A stretch of 64,000 nucleotides of DNA from a virus. Below are positions 117 to 22,991 of the stretch, piece after piece. The notes beneath the pieces are model-generated. The model was not told the DNA's origin and did no database searches. It saw only the letters and a program-made list of their open reading frames with translations. The translations under genes were made by a program, and so were the position numbers. The stretch lies in IMG/VR virus record IMGVR_UViG_3300044445_000018, positions 1-64,000 of that record; one strand, given 5' to 3'. Numbering within the stretch: the stretch's first letter is position 1; every line of letters begins with the position of its first letter.

Positions 117-2513
117 TCAGGCAGCTTGCTTGATCTCCTTGAGATTGGCCATGTCGTAGCCAGCCTCGGCGTCAGCGGGGAAGTTCAGCACCGGGTCCCA
201 TCCCAGCTTGTGGAAGGGCAGGTTCATCATGATCTGCTGCGCCTGTCCCGCGCGCAGGGCCACCTGATCTTCGTCCACGTAGGCGATCATCGCGTCATGG
301 ACCATCCCGACGATGGCGATGTCGTCGTTGGCCCCGTAGTTGGCCTCGATCTCCGCGATGCTCCAGCACATCATGTCTGTCAGGGTGGACTGCACAGGCG
401 CGTTGATGGCCTGACGACGAGCGTCACTGCGGGCCTTCTGATCCCACGACTTGATGGCTGGCAGATGCCGGACACGGCCTAGCGGGGAGCGGACGTGCTC
501 GTACTTGCGCACGAAGTCTGTGATGGCGTCGTGGTAGCCGGGAAGGCCGGGGTAGAGGGCGAAGAACGCAGCGCGAATGTCCTCGGCCTCCTTAAGGGTC
601 AGCTTCAGGCCGTAGCCATTCCACGCGTATGCCTGGAAGCCTTCCGCCGACATGCCGTAGAGCAGACCGAAGTTGGCAGGCTTGGCACGGTCACGCATGA
701 GCTTGAAGAACCCGGAGACGTCGGGGTCCTCGCTGTCCTTCATCAGCAGGAACTCTTCGAGAGGCTTCCCGCACAACTGCGCCCCGGTCACGGCGTGGAG
801 ATCGAGCTTCTTCTCGTAGGCCGCGATCATCTGCTGTTCGTTGGCGATACACGCCACGACCCGCAACTCCCCTTGCGAGAAGTCGAGGTTGAGCATCTTC
901 TTGCCTTTGGGGGCGACGTAGCACTCTCGGATGCGCTTGGCCCACTTGGTCTTCTTGGGGATGATCTGGAACGCCGGGTTCTTGCAGGACAAGCGTCCGG
1001 TGGTGGTCCCGCTCTCAGTGTCGCCTGCCTCTTCGAAGTCGGAGTGCCCCAGGAAGTACGTCGGGTGGATCAGGCCGTCGGGACGGATATGTATTTGGAA
1101 GCCGTCCACGAAGGTTGAGCGCGTCTTGCTGGCCGTGTCCAGGGTGGTCAGAGCTTCCACCATCGCCTTAGCCTCGGGGACGTCCCCGAACTTGCGCAGA
1201 TGGGCCTTCGCCATGCTGGGCTCACCGGACTTGGCGGTGGTCTCCAAGGGCTTCAGGTCCAGGCCGCTCTTGCTGAAGAAGAAGTCCTTCAGGATCGACG
1301 GCAGCATGGGCGACTTGCCGGCTTGTAGCTGCTCGGTAATCCTGTCCCGGTACTTGATCTTCATCCGGGTCGGTAGAAGCTCGATACAGGTCTGCTCGCT
1401 GTTCTTGATCGCAGTCGAGAGGTCGTCCCGCAGGACCGCGAACTTCTGCTGGTCAATGTAGACCCCGCGACGCTCGACGCGCTCAAAGGCCCTGGCGGCG
1501 GGGTGGAGGATGGTCACGTAGAAGTCGGTCAGCTTGCCGTCTTCCGCGAGTTCGTTGCGCAATTGATTGCACACGCGTTGTGCGGCGTCGGTGTCACCCC
1601 CGGCATAGGTCAGGAAGTCGTCCCCTGGGGGGATCGTCTCCATCTTGCCCTTGTCATACTTGTCGTTGAACGCATCGTCGTAGCCGCCCATCTCGGTCTT
1701 GGTCTTGGCGAGATGGTTGAGGGAGTTGGAGCGGTTCTCGTCAAGAAGCGTGCCGGCCAACATCCCGTCGAACTTGAAGTTCGTGCATTCGATGTTCCAC
1801 TTCTTCCATATCCAGATCAGGTCGTACTTGAAGTTCTGACCCCGCGTCCTGACCATCGGCGAGTTGAGCAGCCAGTCGATTTGCGCGCCGACGTCTACCC
1901 CTGGTTCCTCGGGGACAGGGCTCTCGAACTTCGGGCCGCAGTAGAGCAGTTCCGCCATCCCGGCTTCGTCTGTGAAGCTGATCGAGACGATCTCCTTGTC
2001 GTCGTACCAGGGATAGAACCCCATCGTCTCGGTATCACACGACACGTCCTGAGGCTTGCCGGTCTCCGCGTATCGCTTCTTGATGCGCTCGATCATCGGC
2101 GCGTAGGACGCCACGTACTTGTAGGTGCCGATGGGAGGCTTGAGGCTGCCCGTCTTCAGGTAGCGGGCCGCGAGGCTGACGTCCCAGGTGATGGTCTGCT
2201 GCTCGTGGGGCTCGGAGGCCACCACATTGGGATCGAACGTCAACATGTAAAACCCGCCTTCGGGGGCGGGCAGTAGTTTCTCGCGGAGAGATGTGACGGT
2301 GCGGCCCTTCTGGGCTCGGCTGGCCTTCTGGAGTTCCGAGAGACATTTGCTCCCGCAGGCCAGGACGATCTCCCCGGCAGCGGGAACAGGGATTTCGCCA
2401 TCGACGTAGGCAACGAACTTGTGCTGGGGGGTCTCGGGGCGAAGGTCTTTGAGAGCGGCCCCGAGAGTACGGGTGATCGTCTGGGTATTGGCGGCAGTCC
2501 AGATAATGAGCAT
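117..2513 (-). CDS. polA: Family A (Pol I-type) DNA polymerase with 3'-5' exonuclease domain
   Basis: Exo I VSCDTETMG. Motif A DFSQGELRVVA, motif B RDRAKPANFGLLYGM, motif C MVHDAM. ATG at 2513, 6 nt after GGGAG; the track start at 2519 is TTG. Confidence 0.9.
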   Translation of the reverse strand: MLIIWTAANTQTITRTLGAALKDLRPETPQHKFVAYVDGEIPVPAAGEIVLACGSKCLSELQKASRAQKGRTVTSLREKLLPAPEGGFYMLTFDPNVVASEPHEQQTITWDVSLAARYLKTGSLKPPIGTYKYVASYAPMIERIKKRYAETGKPQDVSCDTETMGFYPWYDDKEIVSISFTDEAGMAELLYCGPKFESPVPEEPGVDVGAQIDWLLNSPMVRTRGQNFKYDLIWIWKKWNIECTNFKFDGMLAGTLLDENRSNSLNHLAKTKTEMGGYDDAFNDKYDKGKMETIPPGDDFLTYAGGDTDAAQRVCNQLRNELAEDGKLTDFYVTILHPAARAFERVERRGVYIDQQKFAVLRDDLSTAIKNSEQTCIELLPTRMKIKYRDRITEQLQAGKSPMLPSILKDFFFSKSGLDLKPLETTAKSGEPSMAKAHLRKFGDVPEAKAMVEALTTLDTASKTRSTFVDGFQIHIRPDGLIHPTYFLGHSDFEEAGDTESGTTTGRLSCKNPAFQIIPKKTKWAKRIRECYVAPKGKKMLNLDFSQGELRVVACIANEQQMIAAYEKKLDLHAVTGAQLCGKPLEEFLLMKDSEDPDVSGFFKLMRDRAKPANFGLLYGMSAEGFQAYAWNGYGLKLTLKEAEDIRAAFFALYPGLPGYHDAITDFVRKYEHVRSPLGRVRHLPAIKSWDQKARSDARRQAINAPVQSTLTDMMCWSIAEIEANYGANDDIAIVGMVHDAMIAYVDEDQVALRAGQAQQIMMNLPFHKLGWDPVLNFPADAEAGYDMANLKEIKQAA

Positions 2514-2526
2514 CAACAACTCCCGG

Positions 2527-2934
2527 TCAGGCCGGCACGACTGCCTCCTGCCACAGACGGTCTTTCTTCTTATGGAACAGCGCCACGGTCATGGGCTTTA
2601 GCGACGTCACAACGTCGGCAAGCGCAGGCGTTCCATCAAGGTTCTCGATGTGCTTGTGGAGGGGCTTAGCGCACTTCGCTTGGTCCAGCAAGATCAAGCT
2701 GGCGCGAATACGGCTGTCGAATCCTGCCAGCACTGCACAAGCAAGATTGCCCATCAGTGTTGCGATGACCATCACGCCGTCATCACTGATCATACTGGAC
2801 ACGACGTTGACAGTGACGGGCACTTCGATGCCCTCGATCTCGAAGGTGTGCGTCCGCATGCCGACGATGACGCCTTTGCTCACCATCAGTTCGGTCGCAA
2901 GCTGGTCGGCCAGGGTGTAGATGCTCGACTTCAT
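2527..2934 (-). CDS. hypothetical protein (135 aa)
   Basis: ATGA start/stop overlap with the upstream gene at 2931-2934. GC-rich third codon positions. Confidence 0.5.
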   Translation of the reverse strand: MKSSIYTLADQLATELMVSKGVIVGMRTHTFEIEGIEVPVTVNVVSSMISDDGVMVIATLMGNLACAVLAGFDSRIRASLILLDQAKCAKPLHKHIENLDGTPALADVVTSLKPMTVALFHKKKDRLWQEAVVPA

Positions 2935-3149
2935 GTCAGCTTCCAATCAATTTGCGGCTTGCTGTAGTCGGCGATCCACACGCCGAGGGTAACACCGAAC
3001 CACGTCGCGACGAACGTCACGTTCTTGTGCTCGGTGTTGTGGTTGCGGACCCGTAGCTGCAACGGCTTCGGGGACAGTCCTTTGAGGAGGCTGTCCATCT
3101 GAACAACGTCGCCTTCATCCAGGCTCTGCAAATCATCTTGCGTCAACAT
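2931..3149 (-). CDS. hypothetical protein (72 aa)
   Basis: ATG preceded by GGAGGG. Co-directional ORF. Confidence 0.5.
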   Translation of the reverse strand: MLTQDDLQSLDEGDVVQMDSLLKGLSPKPLQLRVRNHNTEHKNVTFVATWFGVTLGVWIADYSKPQIDWKLT

Positions 3150-3173
3150 GTGCCCTCCGTGGCCGTTACAGGA

Positions 3174-4079
3174 TTACTTGCCCTTGATCTTCTGAAGGTC
3201 GGGCAGGCCGCTGGTGATCTCGATCCCGAGACCCATGATCATGGCGCCCACGATCTTGCGAGCGACGTCGATGGTCGGCGCTTGGACATGCACAGACGCG
3301 TAACCCTTGCTGCCTTTGGGTTCGAGGCCGAGGGCGGCGAGGTTCTTGATGTGCTCCATGAACTTGGGGCCCTCGACGCGAATGGACAGGCTGGCGCCGT
3401 TGTAGCGAGCCGACATGCGGAGGTCGTCGCTGACGGCCACGACATAGTAGCGGCTGCCGCCTGACGTGCCCTGGGTGGGCTGGTAGAGCTTGGTGGCGTC
3501 GCGGAGCTTGATGGGCTCTGCGGTGGTCAGTTCCGACAGCGGGAACTCCCCAGCTTTGTCCACGGGCTGGCCGACAGAGACGGCGGCGGGGGAGGTCTTG
3601 ATGGTCTTGGCGGCGCCTGCCTTGAGCAGGGCGAGGGTGCCGTTCATGGTGGAAAAGTCCTCTGTTTCGATGATGAGCATGATGACTTGAACGACGTCGC
3701 TACAGACTTGCGTCTTCACAAGTTCGGAGGCGAGGCCGTTCTTGATATCTTGGATGGTCGCGTAGTTGATGGGGAGAGTGTGGATCGTGTAGCTCTCGCC
3801 GTCGAAGAACGTGGTCCCGCTGGTTGTGTGCGGGAAATACTCGAAGCGCAGACCCGAAGCCCCGGAGATGCACTTCACTTTCTTAGCGAGTAGTTGCTGG
3901 ATCAGGTCGGCAGGGACCCCGAGTTGCTTGAGCAGGCTGGGCTTCGGCTTATAGCCGGGTTTGGCGGCGGGTGCCTCACCCTTGATCTTGATGTTGACGG
4001 GCATTGGCTTGCTCTCGATTGGCTGGAAGAACGGGTGATTGTCGCTGTACGCGACACAGGTCTGTTCTGCCTTACCCAT
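3174..4079 (-). CDS. hypothetical protein (about 301 aa; start uncertain)
   Basis: The ORF is open to 4169 (TTG). ATG 4079 follows GGAGTGGAC, and GC3 rises only downstream of it. Alternative ATG at 4136. Confidence 0.5.
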   Translation of the reverse strand: MGKAEQTCVAYSDNHPFFQPIESKPMPVNIKIKGEAPAAKPGYKPKPSLLKQLGVPADLIQQLLAKKVKCISGASGLRFEYFPHTTSGTTFFDGESYTIHTLPINYATIQDIKNGLASELVKTQVCSDVVQVIMLIIETEDFSTMNGTLALLKAGAAKTIKTSPAAVSVGQPVDKAGEFPLSELTTAEPIKLRDATKLYQPTQGTSGGSRYYVVAVSDDLRMSARYNGASLSIRVEGPKFMEHIKNLAALGLEPKGSKGYASVHVQAPTIDVARKIVGAMIMGLGIEITSGLPDLQKIKGK

Positions 4080-4185
4080 GTCCACTCCGACGACTTTTGC
4101 GTCTTTAGGTATGGATTGGATGTTTGGTAAGGTCATGAACGTTTTTGACACTGTGACACCGTGGGTCAAGTGAAGTTAACTGCAC

Positions 4186-5010
4186 TCAGCGGGTCGGCCC
4201 GGCGAAGATGCTGCCTTCTGTCGTGAGCGGAGTGTAGACCTCGGGGCCCTTCGCGCGGGGCTTGCTGACTGGGCTGCTCTGGCGGTAACTGCCTTCCTTG
4301 GAGCCCGCGACCTTGGTGACGCCGAAGTGCTCGTGGAGGAAGTTGATCTGCCGGCTGCTCTCGACGGCCTTCTTGCAGTAGTTGGTGCGGACATACGTGA
4401 TGGCGTCAGGCTCCCCGAACTCGGACACGAGGGCTGCGAGGAAGGTGCCGGTGCGGCCATGACCGCCGATGCAGCCGCAGTGGACTTTGAGCCCCTTGTC
4501 CAGTTGCTCGCGGGTCCACTTGATCAGCTTCTTGAACTCGGCTGCGTCGCTGGGCGCGTCCATGTCGGTGATCTTGAACAGGAGTTCGGCACCCTTCTTC
4601 CAGGGCCAGTGCTTCTGTGTGAAGCGCATGCCGCTGTCGAAGCCGATGTACACGTCTGCGTCTTTCACGGACGGGGAGCAGCAGGAGCCGCCGAAAATCT
4701 GAAGGTCGCTGTTGGGGATCGCGAGCGCGGGGTGCGTCTCGTAACAGCGGAGGCTGGTAGTGCTGACCGACGACGACTTATGGCTACCCCACCGGCTGTC
4801 GCTGTCGAGGAAGTCACGGACGCTTGACCCGCCCTGGTTAGGACTGGTGCTGCCGAACTTCTTGGCCTCGGTCTCCTTGCTGAACAGGCGGTCGGTGAAG
4901 CCCTCGCTCACGTCCCCGCCGTAGGTGGCGGTCTTGGGGTAGCTCACGCTGCCACCGCGAATGGTGGCGCGGTCGCCGTGGATGGTGTCATTGAGATTTT
5001 TGCGAGCCAT
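4186..5010 (-). CDS. Cys-based (CX5R) dual-specificity/tyrosine phosphatase-fold protein
   Basis: P-loop HCGCIGGHGRTG, then YVRTNYCKKAVESSRQINFL (KAP/Cdc14-like arrangement). SD GGAGGG. Paralogue of 6203..6802. Confidence 0.65.
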   Translation of the reverse strand: MARKNLNDTIHGDRATIRGGSVSYPKTATYGGDVSEGFTDRLFSKETEAKKFGSTSPNQGGSSVRDFLDSDSRWGSHKSSSVSTTSLRCYETHPALAIPNSDLQIFGGSCCSPSVKDADVYIGFDSGMRFTQKHWPWKKGAELLFKITDMDAPSDAAEFKKLIKWTREQLDKGLKVHCGCIGGHGRTGTFLAALVSEFGEPDAITYVRTNYCKKAVESSRQINFLHEHFGVTKVAGSKEGSYRQSSPVSKPRAKGPEVYTPLTTEGSIFAGPTR

Positions 5011-5034: not shown

Positions 5035-6066
5035 TTACGCTGCGCGCAGGATTTTCTTGACGTGGAAGCCGGGGTAGATTTCGAGATGCGTCTTGGCGAA
5101 CTCTTCGGCTTCTGCCTTGGCTTTGGCCTCGGCAATGGCTTCTTGCTCGGCGGCCTTCTTTGCAGCGGCCTGGGCCGCGATAGCCGCTTGCTTCTCGGCT
5201 TCTGCCGCGTGCTCGGGGACGCCGTATTTCTCGGCCTGCATGAGCTTGTCGCTCGGGTACATCTTGACTGAGCCAAGTTGTTCGACGGTGTACCAGCACA
5301 CATGTCGCGGAAGATCGTACTTGTCGATCAGCCGTTTCATAAGCGATTCGAGTTGATCATCCACGAAGGGGTTGAGCTTCTTGTCGTAAATGACGGCTGT
5401 CGGGATTTGACCGGAACGCTGAATGTCGAGAAGACGGATCAGCTTGTCCCCGTTGTACATCCCGTACAGATGACCCTTGTTGAAGATCGGGCCGTTGTTG
5501 TGGGAGAGGGTCCAGATGGTGTCAAGCATCATCTCGGCACTGAATGTGCCGGTCACGAAGTTGACGAGGCAGTCGGTGACTTTGCCCCACGCCTTGCCGC
5601 CGTAGCCGCCGGGCCACGAGCAGTTGTAGAACATCCACTGCACGCACTTCGTCAGGTTGCCGATGGTCGTATTGGGTGGGGAGTTCTTCAGGTTCTCGTG
5701 GATGCCGTGCTCGCCCTTGCTGTTCTTCATGAAGTTCGCCATGGGAGCGCCAAACTTCGCCTTGATCTCATCGAACTTGTCGCTGAGGTTCTTGCAGTGG
5801 CGGGCCTCGCGAACGCAGATGATCAGCAGATAGTAGAAGGCGCGAGCAGACTTCTCGGTCATCTGTGCGTGGTAGTTCTTCACGAACTCCAGTTCCTCGG
5901 GAGGCAGGGGCTCCAGGGGATCGAAGTTCTGGGAGATCAGCGCCATGCCATGGTTCATGCCGTAGAACCACAGGGCCTCGTTCTCGGGGATCACGTTCTT
6001 GTTGGTCACGCTCTCCGTGTACAGGGCCATGCGGTGGACCACGTCAGCCGCTGGAATGGCCGACAT
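5035..6066 (-). CDS. hypothetical protein with C-terminal Ala/Glu/Lys-rich helix (343 aa)
   Basis: Long ORF. ATG 6066 (MSAIPAADV) chosen because the region upstream reads like off-frame Arg/Pro-rich sequence. No motif recognised. Confidence 0.5.
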   Translation of the reverse strand: MSAIPAADVVHRMALYTESVTNKNVIPENEALWFYGMNHGMALISQNFDPLEPLPPEELEFVKNYHAQMTEKSARAFYYLLIICVREARHCKNLSDKFDEIKAKFGAPMANFMKNSKGEHGIHENLKNSPPNTTIGNLTKCVQWMFYNCSWPGGYGGKAWGKVTDCLVNFVTGTFSAEMMLDTIWTLSHNNGPIFNKGHLYGMYNGDKLIRLLDIQRSGQIPTAVIYDKKLNPFVDDQLESLMKRLIDKYDLPRHVCWYTVEQLGSVKMYPSDKLMQAEKYGVPEHAAEAEKQAAIAAQAAAKKAAEQEAIAEAKAKAEAEEFAKTHLEIYPGFHVKKILRAA

Positions 6067-6171
6067 GTCCCGATGGGTGGTGAACACTCTGGATAGATGG
6101 TGCCGGAGAGTGTCTGTGGGGTCCGTAATGGGCACAGGAAGCCCCCTTTGGGGTTGAGGGGTGGAACGGTG

Positions 6172-6199
6172 AGTATGGCACAAAGGCCCCGTGGTGGAA
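6172..6199 (-). promoter_or_regulatory. possible sigma70-like promoter TTCCAC-16-CATACT
   Basis: Lies in the 136-nt gap upstream of 5035..6066. TGTGCCATACT resembles the early-promoter -10 regions. Confidence 0.35.
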
Positions 6200-6202
6200 G
6201 GT

Positions 6203-6802
6203 TTATTGCGGCTTGAAGTTCGTGTTGAACGAGCGGGCCACGTCGCCGAAGAACCGCCGGGTCTTGTGCCGCCACGCCCGCGCATGGATCAGGTGTGTGA
6301 TGGGCTTGATGTCGAAGTCGTTGACATAGGCCAACTGGTTCTCCGTCTCGACCGCATGGCTGTAGTAGTTCTTGCGGACGAACTGCACGGGGTCGGGGAT
6401 GCCCGCGCACTTGGCCATGATCGCGAGGAACAGGCCGGTGCGACCCATGCCACCCATACAGCCGACATACACGTCACGGCCGCCGAACGCCGCGTCGAAG
6501 GCGGTCAGCACAGCCGAGGCGACGAGGTCGTATTGCTCGGCGGTGGGGACTTGGAAGTCCACGATGGGAACGACGAGATCGGCGTGCTCCGGGACACGCT
6601 CCTGGCGGACACAGACGCCGAAGGTGTGAGGGTTGCCCTTGGGGTAGCCGTCGAAGGGACCCCCCGTGATGTGGACCTTCTGGTAAGCACCTGCGAAGCC
6701 GAATGACAGGGCGAGTACCCCGTTGGCGCGGGGGAAAGTGACCATCTCGGAGGCGATGTCACGCGAGCGGGGGGAACGAGCTTTGGCCATAGGTGCCCTC
6801 AT
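6203..6802 (-). CDS. Cys-based (CX5R) phosphatase-fold protein, paralogue of 4186..5010
   Basis: P-loop VGCMGGMGRTG, then FVRKNYYSHAVETENQLAYV. SD GAGGG. Confidence 0.65.
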   Translation of the reverse strand: MRAPMAKARSPRSRDIASEMVTFPRANGVLALSFGFAGAYQKVHITGGPFDGYPKGNPHTFGVCVRQERVPEHADLVVPIVDFQVPTAEQYDLVASAVLTAFDAAFGGRDVYVGCMGGMGRTGLFLAIMAKCAGIPDPVQFVRKNYYSHAVETENQLAYVNDFDIKPITHLIHARAWRHKTRRFFGDVARSFNTNFKPQ

Positions 6803-7031: not shown

Positions 7032-7047
7032 GTGCAATTAATGTCAA
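7032..7047. promoter_or_regulatory. junction palindrome GTGCAATTAATGTCAA
   Basis: Contains the TGA stop of 7044..7244. 20 nt upstream of ATG 7011, with the SD in between. Confidence 0.85.
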
Positions 7048-7244
7048 ATCAGGTCGATGGACTTCACCTTGTTCCCATCGACCCGCAGGACGAACTCATC
7101 GAACCGCCGGTTGCCCAACGGATGCGTGAGATTGGCGGCCCGGCGTGCCATCCGTGCGAGACGGGCCGACACGTTGCCGCCGATCCCCAGGCGCTTGGCC
7201 TGGGTGATGGCTTGATCGGAGATGTCGAAGCCGTGGGCTTCCAT
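7044..7244 (-). CDS. hypothetical small protein (66 aa)
   Basis: TGATG overlap with the stop of 7244..7519. Confidence 0.45.
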   Translation of the reverse strand: MEAHGFDISDQAITQAKRLGIGGNVSARLARMARRAANLTHPLGNRRFDEFVLRVDGNKVKSIDLI

Positions 7245-7519
7245 CACACTTTCTCCCGCAGACACTCACCCCGCAGGATGCGGATGCTACGCGGAGCCGA
7301 CAGAGCGACACGGACAGTCGCGGACGGGGGCATGTCCCCGGCCGACACGAACACGTCGTCCATGATCTCGACAGCGTGTTCGTCGGTCACGGTGTGGAGC
7401 TTGCCGGTTCCGTCGTCGCGCAGGACGAACTCCATGTCGGCAACGATCTGTTGCACGACGAAACGGCGCTCACCCGCGACGAAGTCTTCGCCTTCACGCA
7501 GCGTCAATACCAGGGCCAT
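7244..7519 (-). CDS. CsrA/RsmA-like protein with an internal insertion of about 40 aa
   Basis: MALVLTLREGEDFVAGE resembles CsrA MLILTRRVGETLMIGD. TVRVALSAPRSIRILRGE resembles VRIGVNAPKEVSVHREE. ATG 7519 is 6 nt after GGAG. Confidence 0.4.
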   Translation of the reverse strand: MALVLTLREGEDFVAGERRFVVQQIVADMEFVLRDDGTGKLHTVTDEHAVEIMDDVFVSAGDMPPSATVRVALSAPRSIRILRGECLREKV

Positions 7520-7557
7520 GACAGTCTCCACACCGTTTCTTACTTCTATCTATCTGA

Positions 7558-9702
7558 TCAGGTCAGCACCTGAAAGACCGCATAGTCTGCGGGGGCTGCT
7601 TGCGGAACCACCTTGGTTTCGACCCCGGCTGTCTTGAGCATGTCTTGCAGCTTGGCCCACGCCTCGTCGCCGCCGATGATGTTGGCGATGAAGTCCTTGG
7701 TGGGTGCCCCCGCGCCGTTGAGAAGATCGGCCACGGTGGCGGGGGCTGTGCTGACGAATACGCCCCGAGCCGAGAGGGACTTGAGGGTCCCCTTCGAGAG
7801 AAGCGGTGCGTTGAGTATCGTCAGGCCCTTGAGAGCGTCTGTCGTCCCGAGGTTGATCACGTAGTCGATCACTGTCTTGGCGAACTCCCCGAGGGGCTTG
7901 GCCGTCTGGAACGCGTCGGCCAGGACACTGTCCTCGATATAGGCGAACGACTGCGGGTGCGCGAGATCGAGGATGGTGGTGGATGCCTTACCCCACTCTG
8001 CGATGCCGTCGATGGCCACTTCCATCTCGCTTTCGTCGTCCCACCAGTCGGCCGCGTGAAGCATGATGGGGCGGTCGATGTCCTCGGGGAAGCTCATGCT
8101 CTCCGCGTACCCCGTGATGGACTGAGCCCAGTGTCGCACAGTGTTGAGTTCGACACTGTCGGATGCGTCGATGATCGGCACGTTGCTCTCGGCCCACACA
8201 CGGCCGGTGGAGCCGCAGATGGTGAGCTTCGTGATCTTGGACTTCTGCATGTCGTGGATGTCGAGGCCGGTGCAGCCGACGACACACGGCTTGTCCATCG
8301 CTCTAGCCACGACAGCCGCGTGGCTGGTGGCGCCGCCGGTTGCAGTGAGGATGCCCTGGGCCTTGTTCATGCCTGCGATGTCGTCGGGGTCCGTCTCGTG
8401 GGTGACGAGGATCACAGGGTCCTTGGCAGACACCGCGTCGGCACTGGAGTAGACGGGACGGCCGACAGCCACGCCGGGACAGGCGGGGAGGCCGACAGCA
8501 TCTGGTGTGCCCTTGTACTTGGGGTCGATGGTGGGGCGCCGCATCAGCTTGAACTGAGCACGGGTGAGGCGCTTGATCGCGTCCTGGGGCACGATCTTGC
8601 CTTGCGTCACGAGGTCGATGGCGATCTTGAACGCGGCGAAGGCACTGCGCTTACCCACGCGGGACTGGAGGATGTAGAGCACACCGTCTTGCACGGTGAA
8701 CTCGATATCGACCATGTCGTTGTAGTGAGCCTCCAGATCACCGCAGACGACCGCGATCTTGTTGGCGATCACAGGCCACGGCGCAGGCATCTCCTGCATC
8801 TTCGTGATGTTGAGGGGGGTGCGGATGCCGGCCACAACGTCCTCACCCTGGGCGTTGGGTAGAAACTCGCCCATGATCACGTTTTCCCCGGTGGAGGGGT
8901 CGCGGGTGAAGAGGACGCCCGTGCCGGACTGGTCGTTGAGATTGCCGAAGACCATGGCCTGGACGTTACAGGCGGTGCCCATCGCCGGATCGATCTTGTT
9001 GATCTTGCGGTACTCGATAGCGCGGTCGTTGCCCCACGAGTTGAAGACGGCGCCGATGGCGGCTTTCAACTGTTCCTCGCGGGTGGCTGGGAACGTGTGA
9101 CCGACTGCCTTGGCGAACGCTTTCTCATACTCCACGACGACAACTTTGAGATCGTTTGCGCCGAGTTGCGTGTCCTCGGTAGCCCCGACGTCTTTCTTGA
9201 CCCGTGCCAACTGAAAGTCGAACACGCCCATGTCGATGTCGTATGCGGTAGAGCCGAGCATCTGAATGAGGCGGCGGTAGCTGTCCCACGCAGCACGCTC
9301 GCCGATGCGCTCGATCCACTCGTTGAGATTGTGGTGAGTGAGGCCGACGTTGAGGATGGTGTCCATCATGCCGGGCATAGACACAGGGGCGCCGGAACGA
9401 ACGGAGACGAGGGGAGCGTACCCCATGGTCTCCGTGAGCCACGCATCATGCTTGAGCACTTCCTGCATGAGCACGCTGACGAACTTGTGTTCTTCGGGAG
9501 ACCCTGCGCCGAACTTTGCGAGGATATCCATGAACTGGTTGCAGATGCGGGTGGTGATGCAGAAGGCCGGGGGCACGTTGAGCCCCATGTCAACCATGTC
9601 GTGGAGGCCCGCACCCTTACCCCCGAGGATGGCCTTCTTAGGGGCCTCCTCAGTGTAAGGAGTGCAGGACCCCTTCGCGATACGATAGAAGTTGGTATCC
9701 AC
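7558..9702 (-). CDS. PPDK-like dikinase: ATP-grasp + phosphohistidine swivel domains with a non-PPDK C-terminal ~200 aa
   Basis: Collinear with pyruvate phosphate dikinase through LGGKGAGL, VSVRSGAPVSMPGMMDTILNVGL, NAQGEDVVAGIRTP and TATGGATSHAAVVARAMDKPCVVG. No PEP/pyruvate TIM-barrel motifs follow. GTG start 5 nt after GGAGG. Confidence 0.8.
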   Translation of the reverse strand: MDTNFYRIAKGSCTPYTEEAPKKAILGGKGAGLHDMVDMGLNVPPAFCITTRICNQFMDILAKFGAGSPEEHKFVSVLMQEVLKHDAWLTETMGYAPLVSVRSGAPVSMPGMMDTILNVGLTHHNLNEWIERIGERAAWDSYRRLIQMLGSTAYDIDMGVFDFQLARVKKDVGATEDTQLGANDLKVVVVEYEKAFAKAVGHTFPATREEQLKAAIGAVFNSWGNDRAIEYRKINKIDPAMGTACNVQAMVFGNLNDQSGTGVLFTRDPSTGENVIMGEFLPNAQGEDVVAGIRTPLNITKMQEMPAPWPVIANKIAVVCGDLEAHYNDMVDIEFTVQDGVLYILQSRVGKRSAFAAFKIAIDLVTQGKIVPQDAIKRLTRAQFKLMRRPTIDPKYKGTPDAVGLPACPGVAVGRPVYSSADAVSAKDPVILVTHETDPDDIAGMNKAQGILTATGGATSHAAVVARAMDKPCVVGCTGLDIHDMQKSKITKLTICGSTGRVWAESNVPIIDASDSVELNTVRHWAQSITGYAESMSFPEDIDRPIMLHAADWWDDESEMEVAIDGIAEWGKASTTILDLAHPQSFAYIEDSVLADAFQTAKPLGEFAKTVIDYVINLGTTDALKGLTILNAPLLSKGTLKSLSARGVFVSTAPATVADLLNGAGAPTKDFIANIIGGDEAWAKLQDMLKTAGVETKVVPQAAPADYAVFQVLT

Positions 9703-10412: not shown

Positions 10413-10575
10413 AGCTTCCAAACTCCTGGGCGATCTCTTCTACGGCGGGGGTGTCGTAGGGGAGCGAGACCGTGTCCCCCTCGACGTAGTGCGAAACTCC
10501 GAGGTCGTCTAGTAAGTCCGCAAATTCGGACGCTGCACCATCGGAACCGTACCTATAGGTGATCCTTCGGTCCAT
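10147..10575 (-). CDS. questionable ORF: only the first ~54 codons (10413..10575) look coding
   Basis: Acidic N-terminal part MDRRITYRYGSDGAASEFADLLDDLGVSHYVEGDTVSLPYDTPAVEEIAQEF. The ORF then runs out of frame through 9894..10412 with low GC3 and no stop until 10147. Confidence 0.25.
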   Translation of the reverse strand: MDRRITYRYGSDGAASEFADLLDDLGVSHYVEGDTVSLPYDTPAVEEIAQEFGSYDRREFHPQGADRPGGLVSDGAVPARAHDDPDARSSSHQGLPISARYRGQAEQGRRGCYYDPAARTDGTRGQADRRARRLDLTRRWRQ

Positions 10576-12617
10576 CGTGTGTCTACCCCTTCCTTGAAGC
10601 GGTCCTGCCGCAGCTTCTCGACGTACGTGATGGACTTCTTGTGGGCCGTCCGCTGCTGTTCCTCCAGCGTCTTGGGGATTTGCCGGATCGAGACACCGTG
10701 CTTGACCCAGATTTCCCGACGCATGGTCAAGCCGTACACGACACCGGCCATCGCATCCGTCAAGTCCTTCGATCCGTTGGGAGGGTGGTCGATGACCCCG
10801 CTGGACGGGACAAGCTCCAACTGTGAGGCTTCCTTGATCGCCTTGATCTGCGGCGGACAGACGACACGCCCGTCATAGATCGCCTGTTTCAGCATGTCGT
10901 AGGCGAGGTTGTCCGTGTCCATTGACTGCGTGCCGGTCGTGAAGCCCTGGCCTGCCAGGATTTGCAGCATGTCCTTGGACTGGTGCGTGTCCGCCGAGAC
11001 CCACTTCAGCTTCACATGCTTGTTGACCATGTAGAGCATCCGGCGAATGCGCCCGTAGTCGATCTCGCCACCCTTGGGCGGCAGCACTTCGAGGATGAAG
11101 TCGAACTGGATGACGGGCAGGATTTCCTTCACGTCCCCGCGATCCACTTCCACGAACTTGGGCACGAACCCGCACGCGACCCCTGTGCTGTCCTTCGTGT
11201 CAGACAGATCGAGATGGGCGAAGCGCGGCTCCTCCTTGTGCATGAAGTGCTTCGGATACATGGCGATCTGGGACGTTACGAAGTCCCCCTTGTCCCGCGA
11301 CAGGACAGAGCGCACGAGGCCGAAGCACGCGGCGATGGCGTCGGTGTTGAGCATGAACGGGTGCATGGCCTGCGTTGCCACACCCACCACGTCACGCAAC
11401 TGCGTGAGCAAGTCCTTCTCCACGAACGCGGCCTTGAACTCGATGGGCACGGCGTGGACGAGATGCCGGTCCTCTTCCTTGAACTCCAGCGGGCTGTCCA
11501 CGAGGCGGGGCTTGCGGGTGCTGTCGCCGACGAAGACGTGGAACCAGAAGGGGTAGTTCTTGCCCCACCGTTCTTCCAGGGCCTCCGTCCGCGTGCCCCT
11601 GTAGAAGCCGAACCGCTCGGGTCTAAGCTCCCAGATGCGGCGGTCGTAGATGTAGATCGTCTTGTTGGTCTTGGCCTCGGCTTCCTTCTTGTCCGTGAAC
11701 TGGCCGGGGTAGTTTCGCGACGACACTAGACAGAGCATCCCCGGCAGCGCGCCTAGCTGGGCGAAGCGGGAGTTCCGGCGGGTGGCGATGCTCTCGTAGT
11801 TCTGGGTGGCCTGATCGTAGGTCTCGCCGTTCTTCGACTGCTTCGACTTCTCGACCACGGCCATGAAGTTGATCTCATCGATAATGCCCCCGATCACGTT
11901 CTGGCCGATAGCCGCCGTGTCCTGGCCCGAGATCGGCTTGATGATCATGTTGCGGGGGAACCGCATGTCGGTCTCACGGTCCTTCTGGTACGGGAAGTTC
12001 TCCTCGAACCAAGGCGAGTTCGACACCATGTCCCGCAGACGCTTGTAGTCCACGTCCTGCGCGACGTTCTTGTTGAGGGACTGGAGCACCATCAGGATTT
12101 CGGAGGACGGATCGAGATCGAAGGTCTCGTGCGGTTCCTCCATGCAGGCCAGCACATACTGCTGGTAGGCGATGGTGTAGATGGCCAGGGTGGTCTTGGC
12201 GACACCGATGGCGCCGGTCAGCACGGCCTCGACGTAGTCCCCCGAGTTGATCCTGACCCCGTGCTCGATGACCTTGGGCCACAGGATGCCGGGCTTGTTC
12301 AGATACTCGGGGCTCTCACAGAACGTGCGGAAGTCAACGGGAAGCTCGCGGTAGCCGATCTTCTCCTTGAGCTTCTTGCGCAGGTGTTTGATCGCGTCGA
12401 GGTAGTAGTCCAGCCGCTGCTGCTGGCTCCAGATCAGGTCTTCCTTGCGCTTGCGAAACTGGGGCTCCGACCCGTCCTGATAGTCCCCGACGTACCACTT
12501 GCCGAGCTTCCAGATGCGTTCCCCGATGGGGCCGAAGTTCTGGAGGATTTGCAGGCACGTCGTCAGTTGCAGGACAATGGGGTCTTGCTGCTTAGGCGAT
12601 GTCTTCGGCGGCTTCAT
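10509..12617 (-). CDS. terL: terminase large subunit
   Basis: 702 aa. Walker-A-like VLTGAIGVAKTT. C-terminal nuclease-like acidic segment AHLDLSDTKDSTG. Lies next to a small-terminase-like gene. Confidence 0.7.
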   Translation of the reverse strand: MKPPKTSPKQQDPIVLQLTTCLQILQNFGPIGERIWKLGKWYVGDYQDGSEPQFRKRKEDLIWSQQQRLDYYLDAIKHLRKKLKEKIGYRELPVDFRTFCESPEYLNKPGILWPKVIEHGVRINSGDYVEAVLTGAIGVAKTTLAIYTIAYQQYVLACMEEPHETFDLDPSSEILMVLQSLNKNVAQDVDYKRLRDMVSNSPWFEENFPYQKDRETDMRFPRNMIIKPISGQDTAAIGQNVIGGIIDEINFMAVVEKSKQSKNGETYDQATQNYESIATRRNSRFAQLGALPGMLCLVSSRNYPGQFTDKKEAEAKTNKTIYIYDRRIWELRPERFGFYRGTRTEALEERWGKNYPFWFHVFVGDSTRKPRLVDSPLEFKEEDRHLVHAVPIEFKAAFVEKDLLTQLRDVVGVATQAMHPFMLNTDAIAACFGLVRSVLSRDKGDFVTSQIAMYPKHFMHKEEPRFAHLDLSDTKDSTGVACGFVPKFVEVDRGDVKEILPVIQFDFILEVLPPKGGEIDYGRIRRMLYMVNKHVKLKWVSADTHQSKDMLQILAGQGFTTGTQSMDTDNLAYDMLKQAIYDGRVVCPPQIKAIKEASQLELVPSSGVIDHPPNGSKDLTDAMAGVVYGLTMRREIWVKHGVSIRQIPKTLEEQQRTAHKKSITYVEKLRQDRFKEGVDTRWTEGSPIGTVPMVQRPNLRTY

Positions 12618-14522: not shown

Positions 14523-15170
14523 TCACTTCTCCTTGGTCAGGGCCGCAAGGTGGTCTTTGTCCTCCGTCCAGATACCCGGTGCGCTCTCGAAGCGGGCACC
14601 GTGGGCGCCCTTGGTCTGATGCTGGTACTTCCCGTCGTAGGGGTTCTCCGCATCGGCGTCGAGCCAAGTGAAGATGAACTGGCAGACGGCGTCACCCTTC
14701 TTGTAGCTGACGACCTTCTCGGAGAAGTTCACCAACTCCAGCGTGGCGTTGCCGTGGAAGCCGGGGTCGAAGAAGGTATTGAACGCCGAAACGAAGACGC
14801 GAGCATAAGTGCTCTTGTCACAGACCGCTCCTCCGACGTCTGCTGGGAGATGGAAGTCTTCGACGGTGTACGCCAGCGCGTAGTGAGGCGGTTCGTTGCG
14901 GAGTTCGGACTGTAGGGCGGGTAGATCACGCAGCGCCCTCCACAGTCCTCGGATACTGGCGAAGTCCTGTCTCAGCAGCCAGTCTTTCCAGACGATGCCG
15001 GGGTGTCTCCCGAGAGTGAGGTCGTGATCGATGCTCGCATCGTAGCTCGCGTGACTGAGCCCCTTGCTGGCCCCGTTCACTCTGATCTTCTCGTTGAGGA
15101 ACGGCGAGATCAGCGGCACTTCCGTGTTCGTGCAGAGGTTGCGGATGCTCTGCCCTGTCAACTGCGTCAC
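14523..15170 (-). CDS. dcd: dCTP deaminase/dUTPase-fold protein
   Basis: FDPGFHGNATLELVN signature and SYDASIDHDLTLG. GTG start. Confidence 0.75.
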   Translation of the reverse strand: MTQLTGQSIRNLCTNTEVPLISPFLNEKIRVNGASKGLSHASYDASIDHDLTLGRHPGIVWKDWLLRQDFASIRGLWRALRDLPALQSELRNEPPHYALAYTVEDFHLPADVGGAVCDKSTYARVFVSAFNTFFDPGFHGNATLELVNFSEKVVSYKKGDAVCQFIFTWLDADAENPYDGKYQHQTKGAHGARFESAPGIWTEDKDHLAALTKEK

Positions 15171-15363
15171 GGGTCTGTTCCTCGAAGCTGTGAATATGCG
15201 TGTGGGGGAATGTCTTCAGGATGCCGTCTTCCGTATCGACGGCGAACAGCATGTAGCACCAGGGATGGTACTCGTTCTCCGCGTACTTGCTGTATTGCGG
15301 GTTGACGAGCCGCTTGCGCCGCTCGCCCCTGTGGTTCGTGTAGTCGATCAGCGCATACGTCAT
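14926..15363 (-). CDS. small ORF whose first ~63 codons (15171..15363) look coding
   Basis: MTYALIDYTNHRGERRKRLVNPQYSKYAENEYHPWCYMLFAVDTEDGILKTFPHTHIHSF. The frame then continues 245 nt into the dcd-like gene with low GC3. Confidence 0.35.
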   Translation of the reverse strand: MTYALIDYTNHRGERRKRLVNPQYSKYAENEYHPWCYMLFAVDTEDGILKTFPHTHIHSFEEQTRDAVDRAEHPQPLHEHGSAADLAVPQREDQSERGQQGAQSRELRCEHRSRPHSRETPRHRLERLAAETGLRQYPRTVEGAA

Positions 15364-15373
15364 CCCAAGTACC

Positions 15374-16834
15374 TCAGTTCTTGCTCAGGACACCCGGCGT
15401 ATTCGTGTCCTTCCAGCCAGCCATGTTCAGGTACACCTTGAGCAGGTGCGCGTTGGCTCGCTTGCCCACGGGGATGCCCTTGAACTGGGCAGCGTTCGTC
15501 ACGAATACACCCTGCTCCCGTGCGAAAGCCAAGGCGTCTATCGAGGTCTGTCCAGTCGCCTCGATCTTTGCCACGAGGTCTTTGTACATCTGCCCGCCGT
15601 CCGTCTGCTCCAGCCTCTTGCGGAGGTACACTTCCTGATCGTCCACGAGCTTCTTGACCACGTCCAGCGTCGGATTGTTGGCCGCGCTCTCCACGAGGTC
15701 TCGCCATGTCGTACTCTCCCACTGCTTGAACTTGGCCATCTGGCCTTTGTAGTCGGTCGCGAACTCCCGCACGATGGCATACGCCTCGACGTAGTCGTTG
15801 GCGCGGAAGGGGTAGTCCTTGCCGAGGAAGTCGGCCCACGGGTGCTTGGGCACGATCACGGGCACACCGAACAGCAAGGGCTCGTAGGTGGACAGTGAGA
15901 AGTCCTCCACTGTCGAGAGGTTAACCACGACGTGCGCTTTGCCCTTCAGGAGGGCGTGGAACTGATCGCGGTTGTTGTGCTGCACGTCCATGAAGTCGAT
16001 CTCGCCCACGTTGGACGAACCGCTGGAGGCCGAGTTCGTGGAGACGATGAAGTTCATCTGCTTCTTCGTCGTGACGTGCGAAATGGCGTAGTGGTCCCGG
16101 AAGAGTTCAGCCACTTCTTTGAAGTTGCGGGTCCCGGTCATCCGGCCTGCGAAAACGACGTTCAGTCCTTTCCCAGGCATCTTGATGGTATTCGTAGCGA
16201 GCCTGGAGAGCTTCACGGGGACGCACTCGTGTATGGTCTTCTGCAAATCGAGTGCCTTTGACGGCGTCAGCCACTGCTTGGCGATACGCATCACTTCGCG
16301 TTTCGACCAGAGGTTGTTGATGATCACCGCTCCAGCCGATTGGTAGGCTGCCAAGCTGGTCAAGTCCATGTTGCCTGAGGAGGCCCATGAGACCGTGTCT
16401 CGAAAAGAGAACACTGGCATCTCTTCCAGGCCGATAAACAGCCGTTGGGTCCCTTTGGGGTAATTCCCGACTTCCCGCCCGGCCACATTCCGCATGAAGG
16501 GCAGTTGCGAGATACGCGACGTGAGCACGACATCGAAGTCCCATACCGGTGTATCCCCTGGTGCGAGAATGTGGATGAGCGGGTCAGACAGCTTGAACTG
16601 TTCCTCGACACGGTCGGCTTGCAGGTACGGATACGGCACGAGATGCACGCAGTCCGGTCGGCGGTTGAGGAACTTCCATTCCTCTTCGTTGTTCTTCGAC
16701 GCCTCGGGGTACATCAGGTAGAAGAAGACGTCGTCGCTCTTGGCCCGCAAGCCTTCGATGATCTCCCACGCGAGGTAAGAGGTCGAGCACTTGTGCGCCT
16801 TGCCCGTGTAGATCGGGTCGATCAGGATTTTCAC
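15374..16834 (-). CDS. GT-B fold glycosyltransferase
   Basis: EDFSLSTYEPLLFGVPVIV (E-x7-E region). GTG 16834 after GAAAGG. The track N-terminus upstream reads as off-frame. Confidence 0.6.
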   Translation of the reverse strand: MKILIDPIYTGKAHKCSTSYLAWEIIEGLRAKSDDVFFYLMYPEASKNNEEEWKFLNRRPDCVHLVPYPYLQADRVEEQFKLSDPLIHILAPGDTPVWDFDVVLTSRISQLPFMRNVAGREVGNYPKGTQRLFIGLEEMPVFSFRDTVSWASSGNMDLTSLAAYQSAGAVIINNLWSKREVMRIAKQWLTPSKALDLQKTIHECVPVKLSRLATNTIKMPGKGLNVVFAGRMTGTRNFKEVAELFRDHYAISHVTTKKQMNFIVSTNSASSGSSNVGEIDFMDVQHNNRDQFHALLKGKAHVVVNLSTVEDFSLSTYEPLLFGVPVIVPKHPWADFLGKDYPFRANDYVEAYAIVREFATDYKGQMAKFKQWESTTWRDLVESAANNPTLDVVKKLVDDQEVYLRKRLEQTDGGQMYKDLVAKIEATGQTSIDALAFAREQGVFVTNAAQFKGIPVGKRANAHLLKVYLNMAGWKDTNTPGVLSKN

Positions 16835-16991
16835 GCGCTTGCCTTTCGGTAGACGCGCCAACCCCCATCGGTCTTGCGCGCAGTCTTGCGGTAGTCGATC
16901 CCCAGATGCGTGATGGCCTGGGTCAGTGTTCCGGGGTACTCGCGGATCGAAACGTACTGATCCGGCTCTCCGGGTGCTATAAGACAGCACA

Positions 16992-17486
16992 TCACGCGAG
17001 GGAAGAACATTGAGCCTCCTGCGTCAAGAAGCGTTTGCGGATACGAGAGCCGGGCACGTTCTTGCTGTTCTGGGACTTCGTGGCCCAGCGCAGGTTGCGA
17101 CGGCGACAGTCCAGGGTGTTCCCGTTGCGATGATCCCCGATGCGGTAAGGTCTCCGAGGGCCTTTCCACCGCGTGAGGATTTCACAGTGCAGGAACAGGT
17201 TCCCGTAGCGAGGACGTCCCGAAGGCAAGAACCCGTCGATCTGAACAGACCGGCGGGCATAGATGCCATCAGGGCGCTCTAGGGCGTTCATCCAGGGCAG
17301 GTACTTGCCTGACCCGTACGTGTGGCACCAGAGGAAGTCTTTGGCCCACACGTAGTCTTGGTAGTCGAGCAGGACGTTGAGGTCCCACCGGTTCGACAGG
17401 CAGATCGCGAAGGTCGCGTCCGGTGCCGGTTCCGTGTCCCACGTCCTGGGATCGAATGGATCAGCCAGTAGCAAGTCTTCGAACAT
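16992..17486 (-). CDS. HNH homing-type endonuclease
   Basis: GDHRNGNTLDCRRRNLRWATKSQNSKN. Free-standing, between the glycosyltransferase and methyltransferase-like genes. Confidence 0.75.
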   Translation of the reverse strand: MFEDLLLADPFDPRTWDTEPAPDATFAICLSNRWDLNVLLDYQDYVWAKDFLWCHTYGSGKYLPWMNALERPDGIYARRSVQIDGFLPSGRPRYGNLFLHCEILTRWKGPRRPYRIGDHRNGNTLDCRRRNLRWATKSQNSKNVPGSRIRKRFLTQEAQCSSLA

Positions 17487-17498
17487 GAGCCGCCCCGA

Positions 17499-17514
17499 GT
17501 GACGTTAATTGCAC
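17499..17514. promoter_or_regulatory. junction palindrome GTGACGTTAATTGCAC
   Basis: Abuts the TGA stop at 17515-17517. 12 nt upstream of the HNH ATG. Confidence 0.85.
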
Positions 17515-18198
17515 TCAGATCGGCTCGACTTGCAGCGCGAGACGGAAGGCGTACGGTTCGACCCCTTGCACGTCGGAGTAGCAGGGCACAGACAGAACCG
17601 ATGTCACCGCGAGGTTTTGGTCTGCCAGAACCTCACGATAGGCGGCGATAGCGTCTTCCTCGCTGATGATGCCGTGGGAGCCCACGTCGTAGAACGATGC
17701 TCGCGCTGCCATCCATTTCTTGTAGTTGAACTCGGCGTACTCGTCGTAGCCGTGGGACCCGACCTCCTCCTTGTTGTAGGGCCGCTTGTTCACGTACAGA
17801 ACGATCAACGCCTTGGGCTTGAGCATCCCCTTGATGTGCCGCAGCACGTCGAAGTGCTCGATATGAGCGATCCCGAACGCGTCGTTGTGAATGCCCTGGG
17901 GCGTGTCGATCACGACCATGTCGTACTTGTGGGTGCAGCCACCCATGCTGGTGTACGAACAGCCGATGATGATCTCACGCGGATTGAACTTCTCCAGGGC
18001 CGGACGGTGCTCGGCGTTCAATTCCCACAGGTCGAGGTTGTTGATCTCGGTGTAGTAACGGCTGACGGTGAGCGCCCCATCACGGGCGAACATGTCGAGT
18101 GCATCGGGACCGATCTCGTAGAAGCCGAACAAGGCGTCGAAGAACAGCTTCGCACTGAGCTTGTCCGCGCCGGTCACGTCACAGGTACGAATTTTCAC
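17515..18198 (-). CDS. Rossmann-fold methyltransferase-like protein (RsmD/DNA-MTase-like)
   Basis: Motif I-like LDMFARDGALT. Motif IV position reads VVIDTPQG rather than DPPY. Confidence 0.4.
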   Translation of the reverse strand: MKIRTCDVTGADKLSAKLFFDALFGFYEIGPDALDMFARDGALTVSRYYTEINNLDLWELNAEHRPALEKFNPREIIIGCSYTSMGGCTHKYDMVVIDTPQGIHNDAFGIAHIEHFDVLRHIKGMLKPKALIVLYVNKRPYNKEEVGSHGYDEYAEFNYKKWMAARASFYDVGSHGIISEEDAIAAYREVLADQNLAVTSVLSVPCYSDVQGVEPYAFRLALQVEPI

Positions 18199-18213
18199 GG
18201 GGGCTGTCCTCGA

Positions 18214-19442: not shown

Positions 19443-19444
19443 GG

Positions 19445-20395: not shown

Positions 20396-20399
20396 GGGT

Positions 20400-22386: not shown

Positions 22387-22412
22387 GTCTGAGGGGTGCT
22401 CTGTGATTGAAC

Positions 22413-22966: not shown

Positions 22967-22991
22967 TGCTGCCCTCCTTGGTTGCCTTTTG

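Follow-up and report, generated by a model that had tools for sequence, protein, structure and literature searches.

A short-form phosphohistidine dikinase annotated as pyruvate phosphate dikinase heads a conserved phosphatase cassette beside the DNA polymerase gene of siphoviruses

Pyruvate phosphate dikinase (PPDK; EC 2.7.9.1), with structures from Clostridium symbiosum (1DIK, 1KBL) and maize (1VBG), is an enzyme of central metabolism that reversibly converts ATP, Pi and pyruvate to AMP, PPi and phosphoenolpyruvate (PEP), and in which an ATP-grasp domain and a swivelling phosphohistidine domain, tethered by two linkers, are combined with a PF02896 barrel that carries an Arg/Glu/Asp/Cys catalytic set. 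Other enzymes of the superfamily use acceptors different from pyruvate. In rifampicin phosphotransferase (RPH; 5FBS, 5HV1) the phosphoryl group passes from the ATP-grasp domain through the swivelling His to a hydroxyl of an acceptor held on a family-specific domain; in PigC/RedH and in phenylphosphate synthase/HpeHI the phosphohistidine activates the oxygen of a small aromatic molecule; and the plant glucan or phosphoglucan water dikinase (GWD) works with the glucan phosphatases SEX4/LSF2, which are of the dual-specificity phosphatase (DSP) type, on one substrate. Here we describe a gene of this superfamily from a 64,000 nt stretch of viral DNA (positions 1 to 64,000 of IMG/VR record IMGVR_UViG_3300044445_000018; hereafter, the window), in which it occupies positions 7558..9702 (-) and encodes, from a GTG start, a short-form dikinase of 714 aa with an ATP-grasp domain, a phosphohistidine swivel domain and an orphan C-terminal domain. 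We consider it to be a three-domain swivelling-histidine dikinase with a non-pyruvate acceptor, and the gene cassette that it heads to serve the DNA or nucleotide programme of the phage, a reading to which we assign a probability of about 0.7. An earlier note on this DNA, made from the sequence alone, had already proposed a dikinase with a new acceptor domain, listing PEP synthase among the enzymes with acceptors other than pyruvate; this example has to be withdrawn, as PEP synthase does use pyruvate.

A Pfam scan of the dikinase identified PF01326 (PPDK_N; E=2.9e-44) and the PEP-utilizers mobile domain PF00391 (E=2.5e-24, residues 427–500). The nucleotide-binding ATP-grasp domain spans about residues 1–350 (8653..9702 (-)), as judged from PF01326, the alignment to 9pzl and conservation among 117 sequences, and the swivelling domain about residues 400–505 (8188..8505 (-)). 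They are followed by the second inter-domain linker (VPIIDASDS...VRHWA; residues 506–530, 8113..8187 (-)), which is the last PPDK-homologous stretch according both to hhalign and to the ends of the longest phmmer alignments, at residues 527–528. Comparison against PDB sequences using phmmer retrieved PPDKs with E values from 6.6e-121 to 1e-105, about 40–45% identity over residues 20–530 and alignments that stop at residue 487–528. The proposed collinearity of the first ~510 aa with PPDK thus holds as to homology, but its limit has to be moved, because the linker helix extends the homology to about residue 530; the sequence RVWAESNVPIIDASDS begins at residue 501.

Alignment to the C. symbiosum PPDK 9pzl, numbered as 1dik, paired dikinase residues K29, R102, G111, D332, E334, Q346 and R348 with K22, R92, G101, D321, E323, Q335 and R337, and T459-S460-H461 with T453-S454-H455. 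The ATP-grasp motifs and the phosphohistidine loop reported previously were therefore found again, the latter as GGATSHAAVVARAMDK at 8290..8349 (-), with the codon for His461 at 8320..8322. In the 117-member family alignment, each of the mapped ATP-site and His residues is either invariant or conserved to at least 90%; among them are the counterparts of K22, R337 and T453, positions mutated in PDB entries 1jde, 2dik and 1ggo. The two linkers on which the swivel domain of PPDK moves are likewise present, such that the protein has the shared domains, the linkers and the intact catalytic His that we took to define the His-dikinase superfamily. An AlphaFold2 model of the full-length protein (pLDDT 93.4, pTM 0.88) matched PPDKs in Foldseek at E~1e-51. 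On this conservation, a non-functional His loop, which had been considered as a possible objection, appears improbable, and the ATP-to-His half-reaction is very probably intact. The public JGI gene call for the dikinase (P0001, 679 aa) begins only at M36 and thereby loses the GGKG motif of the ATP site, which contains K29 (9597..9702 (-)); translation from the GTG at 9702 yields the full-length dikinase, whose restored N-terminus aligns with the family consensus. The opposite-strand open reading frames (ORFs) over the gene (e.g., 420 aa, 7600..8862 (+)) have no independent support, and the plus-strand ORFs, this one included, are taken to be shadow ORFs of a sequence with 60% G+C and not genes.

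The region downstream of the linker forms an alpha/beta domain of 184 aa (residues 531–714, 7558..8112 (-)), hereafter the C-domain, for which we found no relation to the PEP/pyruvate barrel of PPDK. Pfam did not detect PF02896 (PEP-utilizers_C) in the dikinase, nor in any of 36 family C-termini at E≤1, and a profile of the family C-termini did not retrieve PPDK, PEP synthase or enzyme I from the PDB sequences at E≤10. Against the PPDK equivalog TIGR01828 the dikinase scored 539.5 bits, well below the cutoff of 843.45, and matched only profile positions 13–526 of 865. When compared using hhalign with a profile of 83 genuine PPDKs, including 80 diverse ones fetched from genomes, the sole aligned part was the 25-column linker (P=0.0025), whereas without the linker the C-domain scored 15.5 against the real PPDK barrel and 15.0 in the reversed control. 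A collinear likeness of the C-domain to the barrel (WWG~MFFG, LDLRxP~LLDPP, AVPADYAAF~RVPIARLAAA), suggested by an hhalign run with three sequences, was rejected, since with the 83 PPDKs the linker helix alone aligns and the remainder scores as the reversed control. Likewise, the barrel motifs RTEHMFF and FFSFGTNDLTQ and the catalytic Cys have no counterpart in the family C-domains, whose length (131–229 aa, median 165) compares with roughly 340–370 aa for the PPDK barrel (373 profile match columns).

Structural comparison, which had been recommended for this region, led to the same result. With a separate, confidently predicted model of residues 487–714 (pLDDT 92.1), Foldseek of the isolated C-domain against the PDB gave a best match of E=0.014 with TM≤0.32, and no PPDK, PEP synthase or enzyme I among the top 50; against BFVD the best match (E=0.019) was not significant. 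The weak matches of the isolated domain were mostly assorted (beta-alpha) barrels. The anticipated alternative that the C-terminus aligns to a divergent PEP-utilising TIM barrel was consequently not observed with Pfam, the PDB profile, hhalign or Foldseek, and the description of a C-terminus lacking the TIM-barrel motifs is upheld with a size of 184 aa instead of ~200. As judged from sequence and models, the C-domain is not a functional PEP/pyruvate site. The further claim that the barrel was replaced by an unrelated, new acceptor domain agrees with the lack of any detected relation to the barrel, but a barrel degenerated beyond recognition would fit equally.

A profile search with the C-domain of 1.84 billion representative proteins yielded 136 matches, most of them at about residues 490–715 of proteins of 650–740 aa. 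Ten matches of odd length were scanned with Pfam: six contained PPDK_N plus the mobile domain, two fragments of 310 aa only the mobile domain and two of ~210 aa no Pfam domain at all, and among the matches checked there was no canonical-length PPDK, PEP synthase or enzyme I and no other architecture. No match was returned when the C-terminus by itself was used in a word-indexed search for homologues, which we attribute to low conservation and not to a lack of relatives; indeed, identity is 23–40% in the C-domain and 46–55% for the whole dikinase, indicating fast divergence. The C-terminal region nevertheless retains, besides the linker VPVIDxSD, conserved positions W525, WW(G) 553–555, LD579xxxP583, D591, L594, F598(G), L624, P704 and Y707, and the long family members carry an optional insertion at residues ~655–695, which is helical and about 50 aa in length. 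The C-domain is kept in every one of more than 120 homologues among the matches listed, so that it is best described, from sequence and modelled fold, as a maintained, family-specific orphan module. The N-terminal extensions of four homologues (P0270, P0304, P0335 and P0356), which were checked as possible fusions, showed no match to the cassette proteins.

Comparison with the systems outlined above places the phage dikinase close to PPDK in its first two domains and apart from all of them in the third. It shares with PPDK the ATP-grasp domain, the swivelling His domain, both linkers and the ATP and His catalytic residues; instead of the barrel it has the orphan alpha/beta domain of 131–229 aa, and instead of a setting in central metabolism, a phosphatase cassette beside the gene for family A DNA polymerase (PolA). 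The short bacterial "PPDK" family NF004531 (PRK05878; 534 positions) also combines the ATP-grasp and mobile His domains without a full barrel, and matches the dikinase at E=4.9e-123 over positions 19–488; however, the dikinase scores 411.5 bits against a cutoff of 456, and the ~46 model positions beyond the match are too few to accommodate a C-domain as large as that of the phage protein. To our knowledge, no function has been assigned to NF004531. RPH was among the structural matches of the full-length model and follows a logic like the one that we propose, with the order ATP-grasp, rifampicin-binding domain and C-terminal His domain, which differs from that of the phage protein; against the RPH model the dikinase reaches only 54.7 bits (cutoff, 999), with the His domain alone matching, and the acceptor domains are dissimilar. 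PigC and RedH gave weak NCBIfam matches, and HpeI (9goj) of the phenylphosphate synthase/HpeHI-type dikinases was matched by Foldseek, in both cases with only local similarity, confined to the shared domains, and with unrelated acceptor domains. The GWD system is the only case we know of in which a His-dikinase is paired with Cys-phosphatases of the dual-specificity fold. GWD has N-terminal CBM45 modules and its His domain precedes the ATP-grasp domain, whereas the phage dikinase has the ATP-grasp domain first and no carbohydrate-binding module, and the phage phosphatases are closer to small archaeal DSPs.

We found no functional study of this gene in the phage literature. Papers on phages DLP3, DLP5, J26, LV6 and others name it PPDK, as do the database and GenBank entries of its homologues. 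A model of the product as a PPDK has also been published, in which a "TIM barrel" of four strands serves as the pyruvate-binding domain and PEP was docked into it (Chen et al., 2025; PMC12038007), and a 2026 preprint counted phage PPDK among glycolytic auxiliary genes; the paper on Rhodobacter phage RcZahn contains no functional data on the gene. From the results above, the designation as pyruvate phosphate dikinase in the phage papers is very probably wrong. The gene thus represents a variant of a known enzyme kind that is widespread, systematically mis-annotated and located inside an uncharacterised conserved cassette, and its reassignment corrects an annotation that is spreading through dozens of phage genomes, with several papers listing it among auxiliary metabolic genes, as a PPDK said to enhance glycolysis in the host.

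In the window, the gene lies between a TerL-like gene upstream (10509..12617) and two Cys-phosphatase genes downstream (6203..6802 (-) and 4186..5010 (-)), as the earlier note had recorded, and is the first of a cassette with the order dikinase, CsrA-like protein, Cys-phosphatase, phrog_20946 enzyme and second Cys-phosphatase. In cultured relatives, one bacterial genome and contigs from metagenomes, the dikinase gene is followed in turn by one to three small ORFs, a Cys-phosphatase, a phrog_20946 protein of ~340–370 aa and a second Cys-phosphatase, and then by several small unknowns, PolA and the portal gene. For quantification, 80 viral loci were fetched and the cassette components tabulated with hidden Markov models (HMMs), counting those loci with enough downstream sequence. 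The full cassette, with gene order and strand conserved, was present in 59 of 61 short-form dikinase loci, and the remaining two, from Vibrio phages J26 and SIO-2, conserved a Cys-phosphatase and phrog_20946, with a fifth gene unrelated to the phosphatases; no short-form locus lacked the cassette genes altogether. Conversely, none of the seven viral loci with a true, barrel-containing PPDK had any cassette gene, either as the full set or as the phosphatase plus phrog_20946. Gene order is retained down to 34–38% dikinase identity, in the Vibrio phages. PolA was found downstream of the dikinase in 50/50 loci, together with a 331-aa protein (60/60) and a 139-aa protein (50/50), whereas TerL was detected upstream in only 31/60 and lies 12 kb from the dikinase in DLP3; the block is therefore anchored on the polymerase and not on packaging. 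The neighbourhood survey hence supports the linkage to the phosphatases, adds that to PolA, and does not support that to TerL. None of the cassette proteins matched the PADLOC defence models, and a promoter and terminator scan of the dikinase block gave nothing above chance.

We propose that catalysis would start with binding of ATP by the ATP-grasp domain and attack of His461 on the beta-phosphate, giving first a pyrophosphoryl- and then a phosphoryl-histidine, with the gamma-phosphate passing to Pi or water; this transfer from ATP to His461 is strongly supported by the conservation of the residues predicted to carry it out. The mobile domain, on its two PPDK-type linkers, would then swing to a second site, either on the family-specific C-domain or on a partner protein from the same cassette, where the phosphoryl group would be passed to an oxygen of a non-pyruvate acceptor. 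From gene linkage, the phosphorylated product would be handled by phrog_20946 and one or two of the Cys-phosphatases, and the cassette would serve DNA replication or a nucleotide or DNA modification programme and not host carbon metabolism. The most attractive specific hypothesis, which is circumstantial, is that the acceptor may lie in nucleotide or DNA modification, because of the linkage to PolA, the existence of a restriction-resistant relative without known modification genes, and the precedents for O-phosphorylation in the superfamily (RPH, GWD, PigC). This relative is Stenotrophomonas phage DLP3, whose DNA resisted all 15 restriction enzymes tried, from which an unknown modification was inferred (Peters et al., 2020; PMC7326821). 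Its annotation holds no hydroxymethylase, deazaguanine or dNMP-kinase genes, and its sole "thymidylate synthase" is the PTP-like cassette gene. A NAR 2026 paper on glycosylated 5-hydroxycytosine was discarded as a source, as its "DLP3" is a different phage, of Acinetobacter, and no dikinase is mentioned in it.

Several points weigh against a non-pyruvate dikinase of the DNA or nucleotide programme. The link to DNA modification comes from one report of restriction resistance and from neighbours that are loosely linked to the cassette (dCTP-deaminase-like gene, 10/49 loci; glycosyltransferase, 13/49), and the C-domain may be the acceptor domain but is so far a candidate for that role. Its conserved polar residues are few (D579, D591 and Y707) and do not include a basic one of the kind usual in phosphate sites, and the dikinase of the window departs from the family at two near-invariant glycines (G555D and G599Q). 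Because the loci, some of them near-duplicates, all come from a single phage super-lineage, the counts overstate independence and the synteny may in part be due to descent rather than to functional coupling. Finally, the Foldseek alignments between the full-length model and PPDK cover 820–840 columns, and the C-domain may be a very degenerate barrel remnant rather than an unrelated replacement. These same alignments, together with the published four-strand model with docked PEP, the names in databases and GenBank, and the prevalence of barrels among the weak matches of the isolated domain, are what could be adduced for a genuine minimal PPDK, an auxiliary metabolic gene whose short C-domain would be a four-stranded half-barrel still able to bind PEP or pyruvate. 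We regard such an enzyme as highly improbable, given that neither the PF02896 model nor the barrel motifs and catalytic Cys could be recognized, the TIGR01828 score remains at 539 of 843 bits, the profile-profile score equals that of the reversed control, PPDK, PEP synthase and enzyme I are missing from the top 50 structural matches, the domain shrinks to 131 aa in some members, and true PPDKs on viral contigs lack the cassette (0/7).

It is also conceivable, though unlikely, that the C-domain is a structural remnant for dimerisation or docking and that the acceptor is a cassette protein, in a phosphorelay and not a small-molecule kinase. Phosphate would then pass from the phosphohistidine to a phosphocysteine on the PTP-like proteins, as from enzyme I to EIIB-Cys in the phosphotransferase system, or to phrog_20946. 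Such a relay agrees with the scarcity of conserved polar residues and the very fast divergence of the C-domain, whose HMM misses distant clades in which the cassette persists; with the existence of barrel-less bacterial "PPDK" proteins (NF004531); with the strict co-inheritance with Cys-enzymes; and with the homology of the mobile domain to that of enzyme I, which phosphorylates a protein. Nevertheless, the C-domain is kept in all the homologues and confidently folded in the model, the phosphatases have the general-acid Asp typical of hydrolytic enzymes, and there is no subdomain of the HPr-binding type. Slightly less probable still would be a cycle of glycan phosphorylation and dephosphorylation, comparable to that of GWD with SEX4/LSF2, acting on a polysaccharide or sugar-decorated polymer of the host envelope or on glycosylated phage DNA. 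The combination of one dikinase with two DSP-like phosphatases recalls that system, the conserved C-domain positions are rich in aromatic residues (WW(G), F, Y), and the window and its relatives contain a cluster of sugar-nucleotide and glycosyltransferase genes; but Pfam scans of the whole protein and of 36 C-domains revealed no carbohydrate-binding module, the sugar cluster is loosely linked (glycosyltransferase, 13/49), the second phosphatase is swapped for an unrelated gene in the Vibrio phages, and the cassette is anchored to PolA.

Within the preferred reading of a dikinase with a non-pyruvate acceptor, we tentatively entertain, as a possibility that we rate above either of the two preceding alternatives yet well short of even odds, that the cassette beside PolA is a previously unrecognised, ATP-driven pathway for hypermodification of phage nucleotides or DNA. 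The dikinase would O-phosphorylate an oxygen of a base or sugar to create a leaving group or activated intermediate, phrog_20946 would then catalyse the substitution or transfer, and residual phosphate would be removed by the Cys-phosphatases. Activation by O-phosphorylation is found elsewhere in the chemistry of PigC and of CTP-synthase-type enzymes. If true, such a pathway would explain restriction-resistant DNA in phages devoid of a thymidylate-synthase-type hydroxymethylase. In any case, the cassette defines a widespread module in which Cys-phosphatases and two orphan proteins accompany a His-dikinase, and its fixed place by the phage DNA polymerase, along with the restriction-resistant member of the lineage, makes it a candidate system for modifying DNA or nucleotides by a new chemistry, or for an anti-defence role.

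The second cassette gene (7244..7531 (-)), present in 59/61 loci, encodes a CsrA-like protein of 95 aa with a Pfam CsrA match below the cutoff (E=5.4e-5); its N-terminal LVLTLREGEDFVAG and C-terminal VRVALSAPRSIRILRGE are like segments of CsrA, with an insert of about 40 aa between them, and its counterpart in the J26 record is annotated as CsrA. A small conserved ORF of 73 aa without family match (7044..7265 (-)) occurs in 54/68 loci. Cys-phosphatase 1 (199 aa, 6203..6802 (-)) has the CX5R loop CMGGMGR and a general-acid Asp in PIVDFQVP, and aligns to the archaeal DSPs 5z59 and 9e9l, whereas Cys-phosphatase 2 (274 aa, 4186..5010 (-)) has the loop CIGGHGR, the Asp in ITDMDAPS and an N-terminus of ~100 aa without family match. 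Both thus keep the CX5R P-loop and the upstream general-acid Asp and resemble small archaeal DSPs; their Pfam matches, to PTP-SAK and Tc-R-P, are just above the cutoff. The PTP-like cassette gene is labelled "thymidylate synthase / ThyX" in the records of DLP5, DLP3 and SIO-2 and in PHROG phrog_17568 (L003:13550-14338; L010:9425-9901), which is a propagated mis-annotation, since Pfam shows a Cys-phosphatase of the DSP type. Similarly, the fifth cassette gene of J26 is called "pyruvate decarboxylase", without Pfam support.

The phrog_20946 gene (5035..6066 (-)) encodes a protein of 343 aa with many invariant polar residues, counted from the ATG at 6066; the listed ORF of 416 aa (5035..6285 (-)) overlaps the upstream phosphatase gene, and the ATG at 6066 is the likely start, as in the JGI call. 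It has 321 homologues and looks like an enzyme of unknown kind: profile searches against PDB sequences and Pfam returned only noise, with no aGPT-Pplase-type or other known DNA-modification family. At the C-terminus, family members have a low-complexity linker rich in Ala, Glu and Lys and, after it, the motif F.VMPGV.VKKI...RAA, which is conserved and has the look of a docking element on a tether. Downstream of the cassette, between the second phosphatase and PolA (2527..4169 (-)), are genes for proteins of 331 (phrog_25950; 3174..4169 (-)), 72 and 139 aa (2527..2946 (-), just upstream of PolA), for which Pfam gave no match; with 60/60, 39/50 and 50/50 loci, respectively, their position is conserved to the same degree as the cassette. 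PolA itself (117..2519 (-)), whose homologues are annotated as such in the relatives, is the downstream anchor of the block.

The window, with ~60% G+C, is part of a siphovirus genome of ~100 kb; an identical dikinase protein is encoded on a 101,273-bp JGI contig (P0001). The homologues are carried by siphovirus genomes of ~80–100 kb from Vibrio, Stenotrophomonas, Rhizobium and Rhodobacter and by many metagenomic contigs, and the nearest cultured relatives, which are only distantly similar, are Rhodobacter phage RcZahn, Rhizobium phages RHph_TM16 and Y1_11, and Stenotrophomonas phages DLP5, DLP3 and Summit. The block comprising ParB, TerL-like, dikinase, Cys-phosphatase, phrog_20946 and Cys-phosphatase is also present in records of complete bacterial genomes of Nitratireductor, Hyphomicrobium and Aquamicrobium (e.g., locus L007 from Nitratireductor sp. 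OM-1, CP029208.1, 1..15431), an indication that this lineage of phages also exists as prophages or phagemids; DLP5 reportedly persists as a phagemid.

Further upstream, in the stretch 14523..23354 (-) of the window, a sugar-nucleotide cluster comes after a dCTP-deaminase/dUTPase-like gene (14523..15170). The cluster includes, all on the minus strand, genes for a weak GT4-"conflict" glycosyltransferase (15374..16990), an inserted HNH endonuclease (16992..17486), a DegT-type aminotransferase (18214..19329), an epimerase/dehydratase (19445..20395), a PIG-L deacetylase (20400..21050) and a RapZ C-domain protein (22413..23354), and suggests the synthesis of an amino sugar and its transfer to some target. 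The relatives also carry a sugar-nucleotide and glycosyltransferase cluster and a dCTP-deaminase-like gene, with a looser linkage to the cassette.

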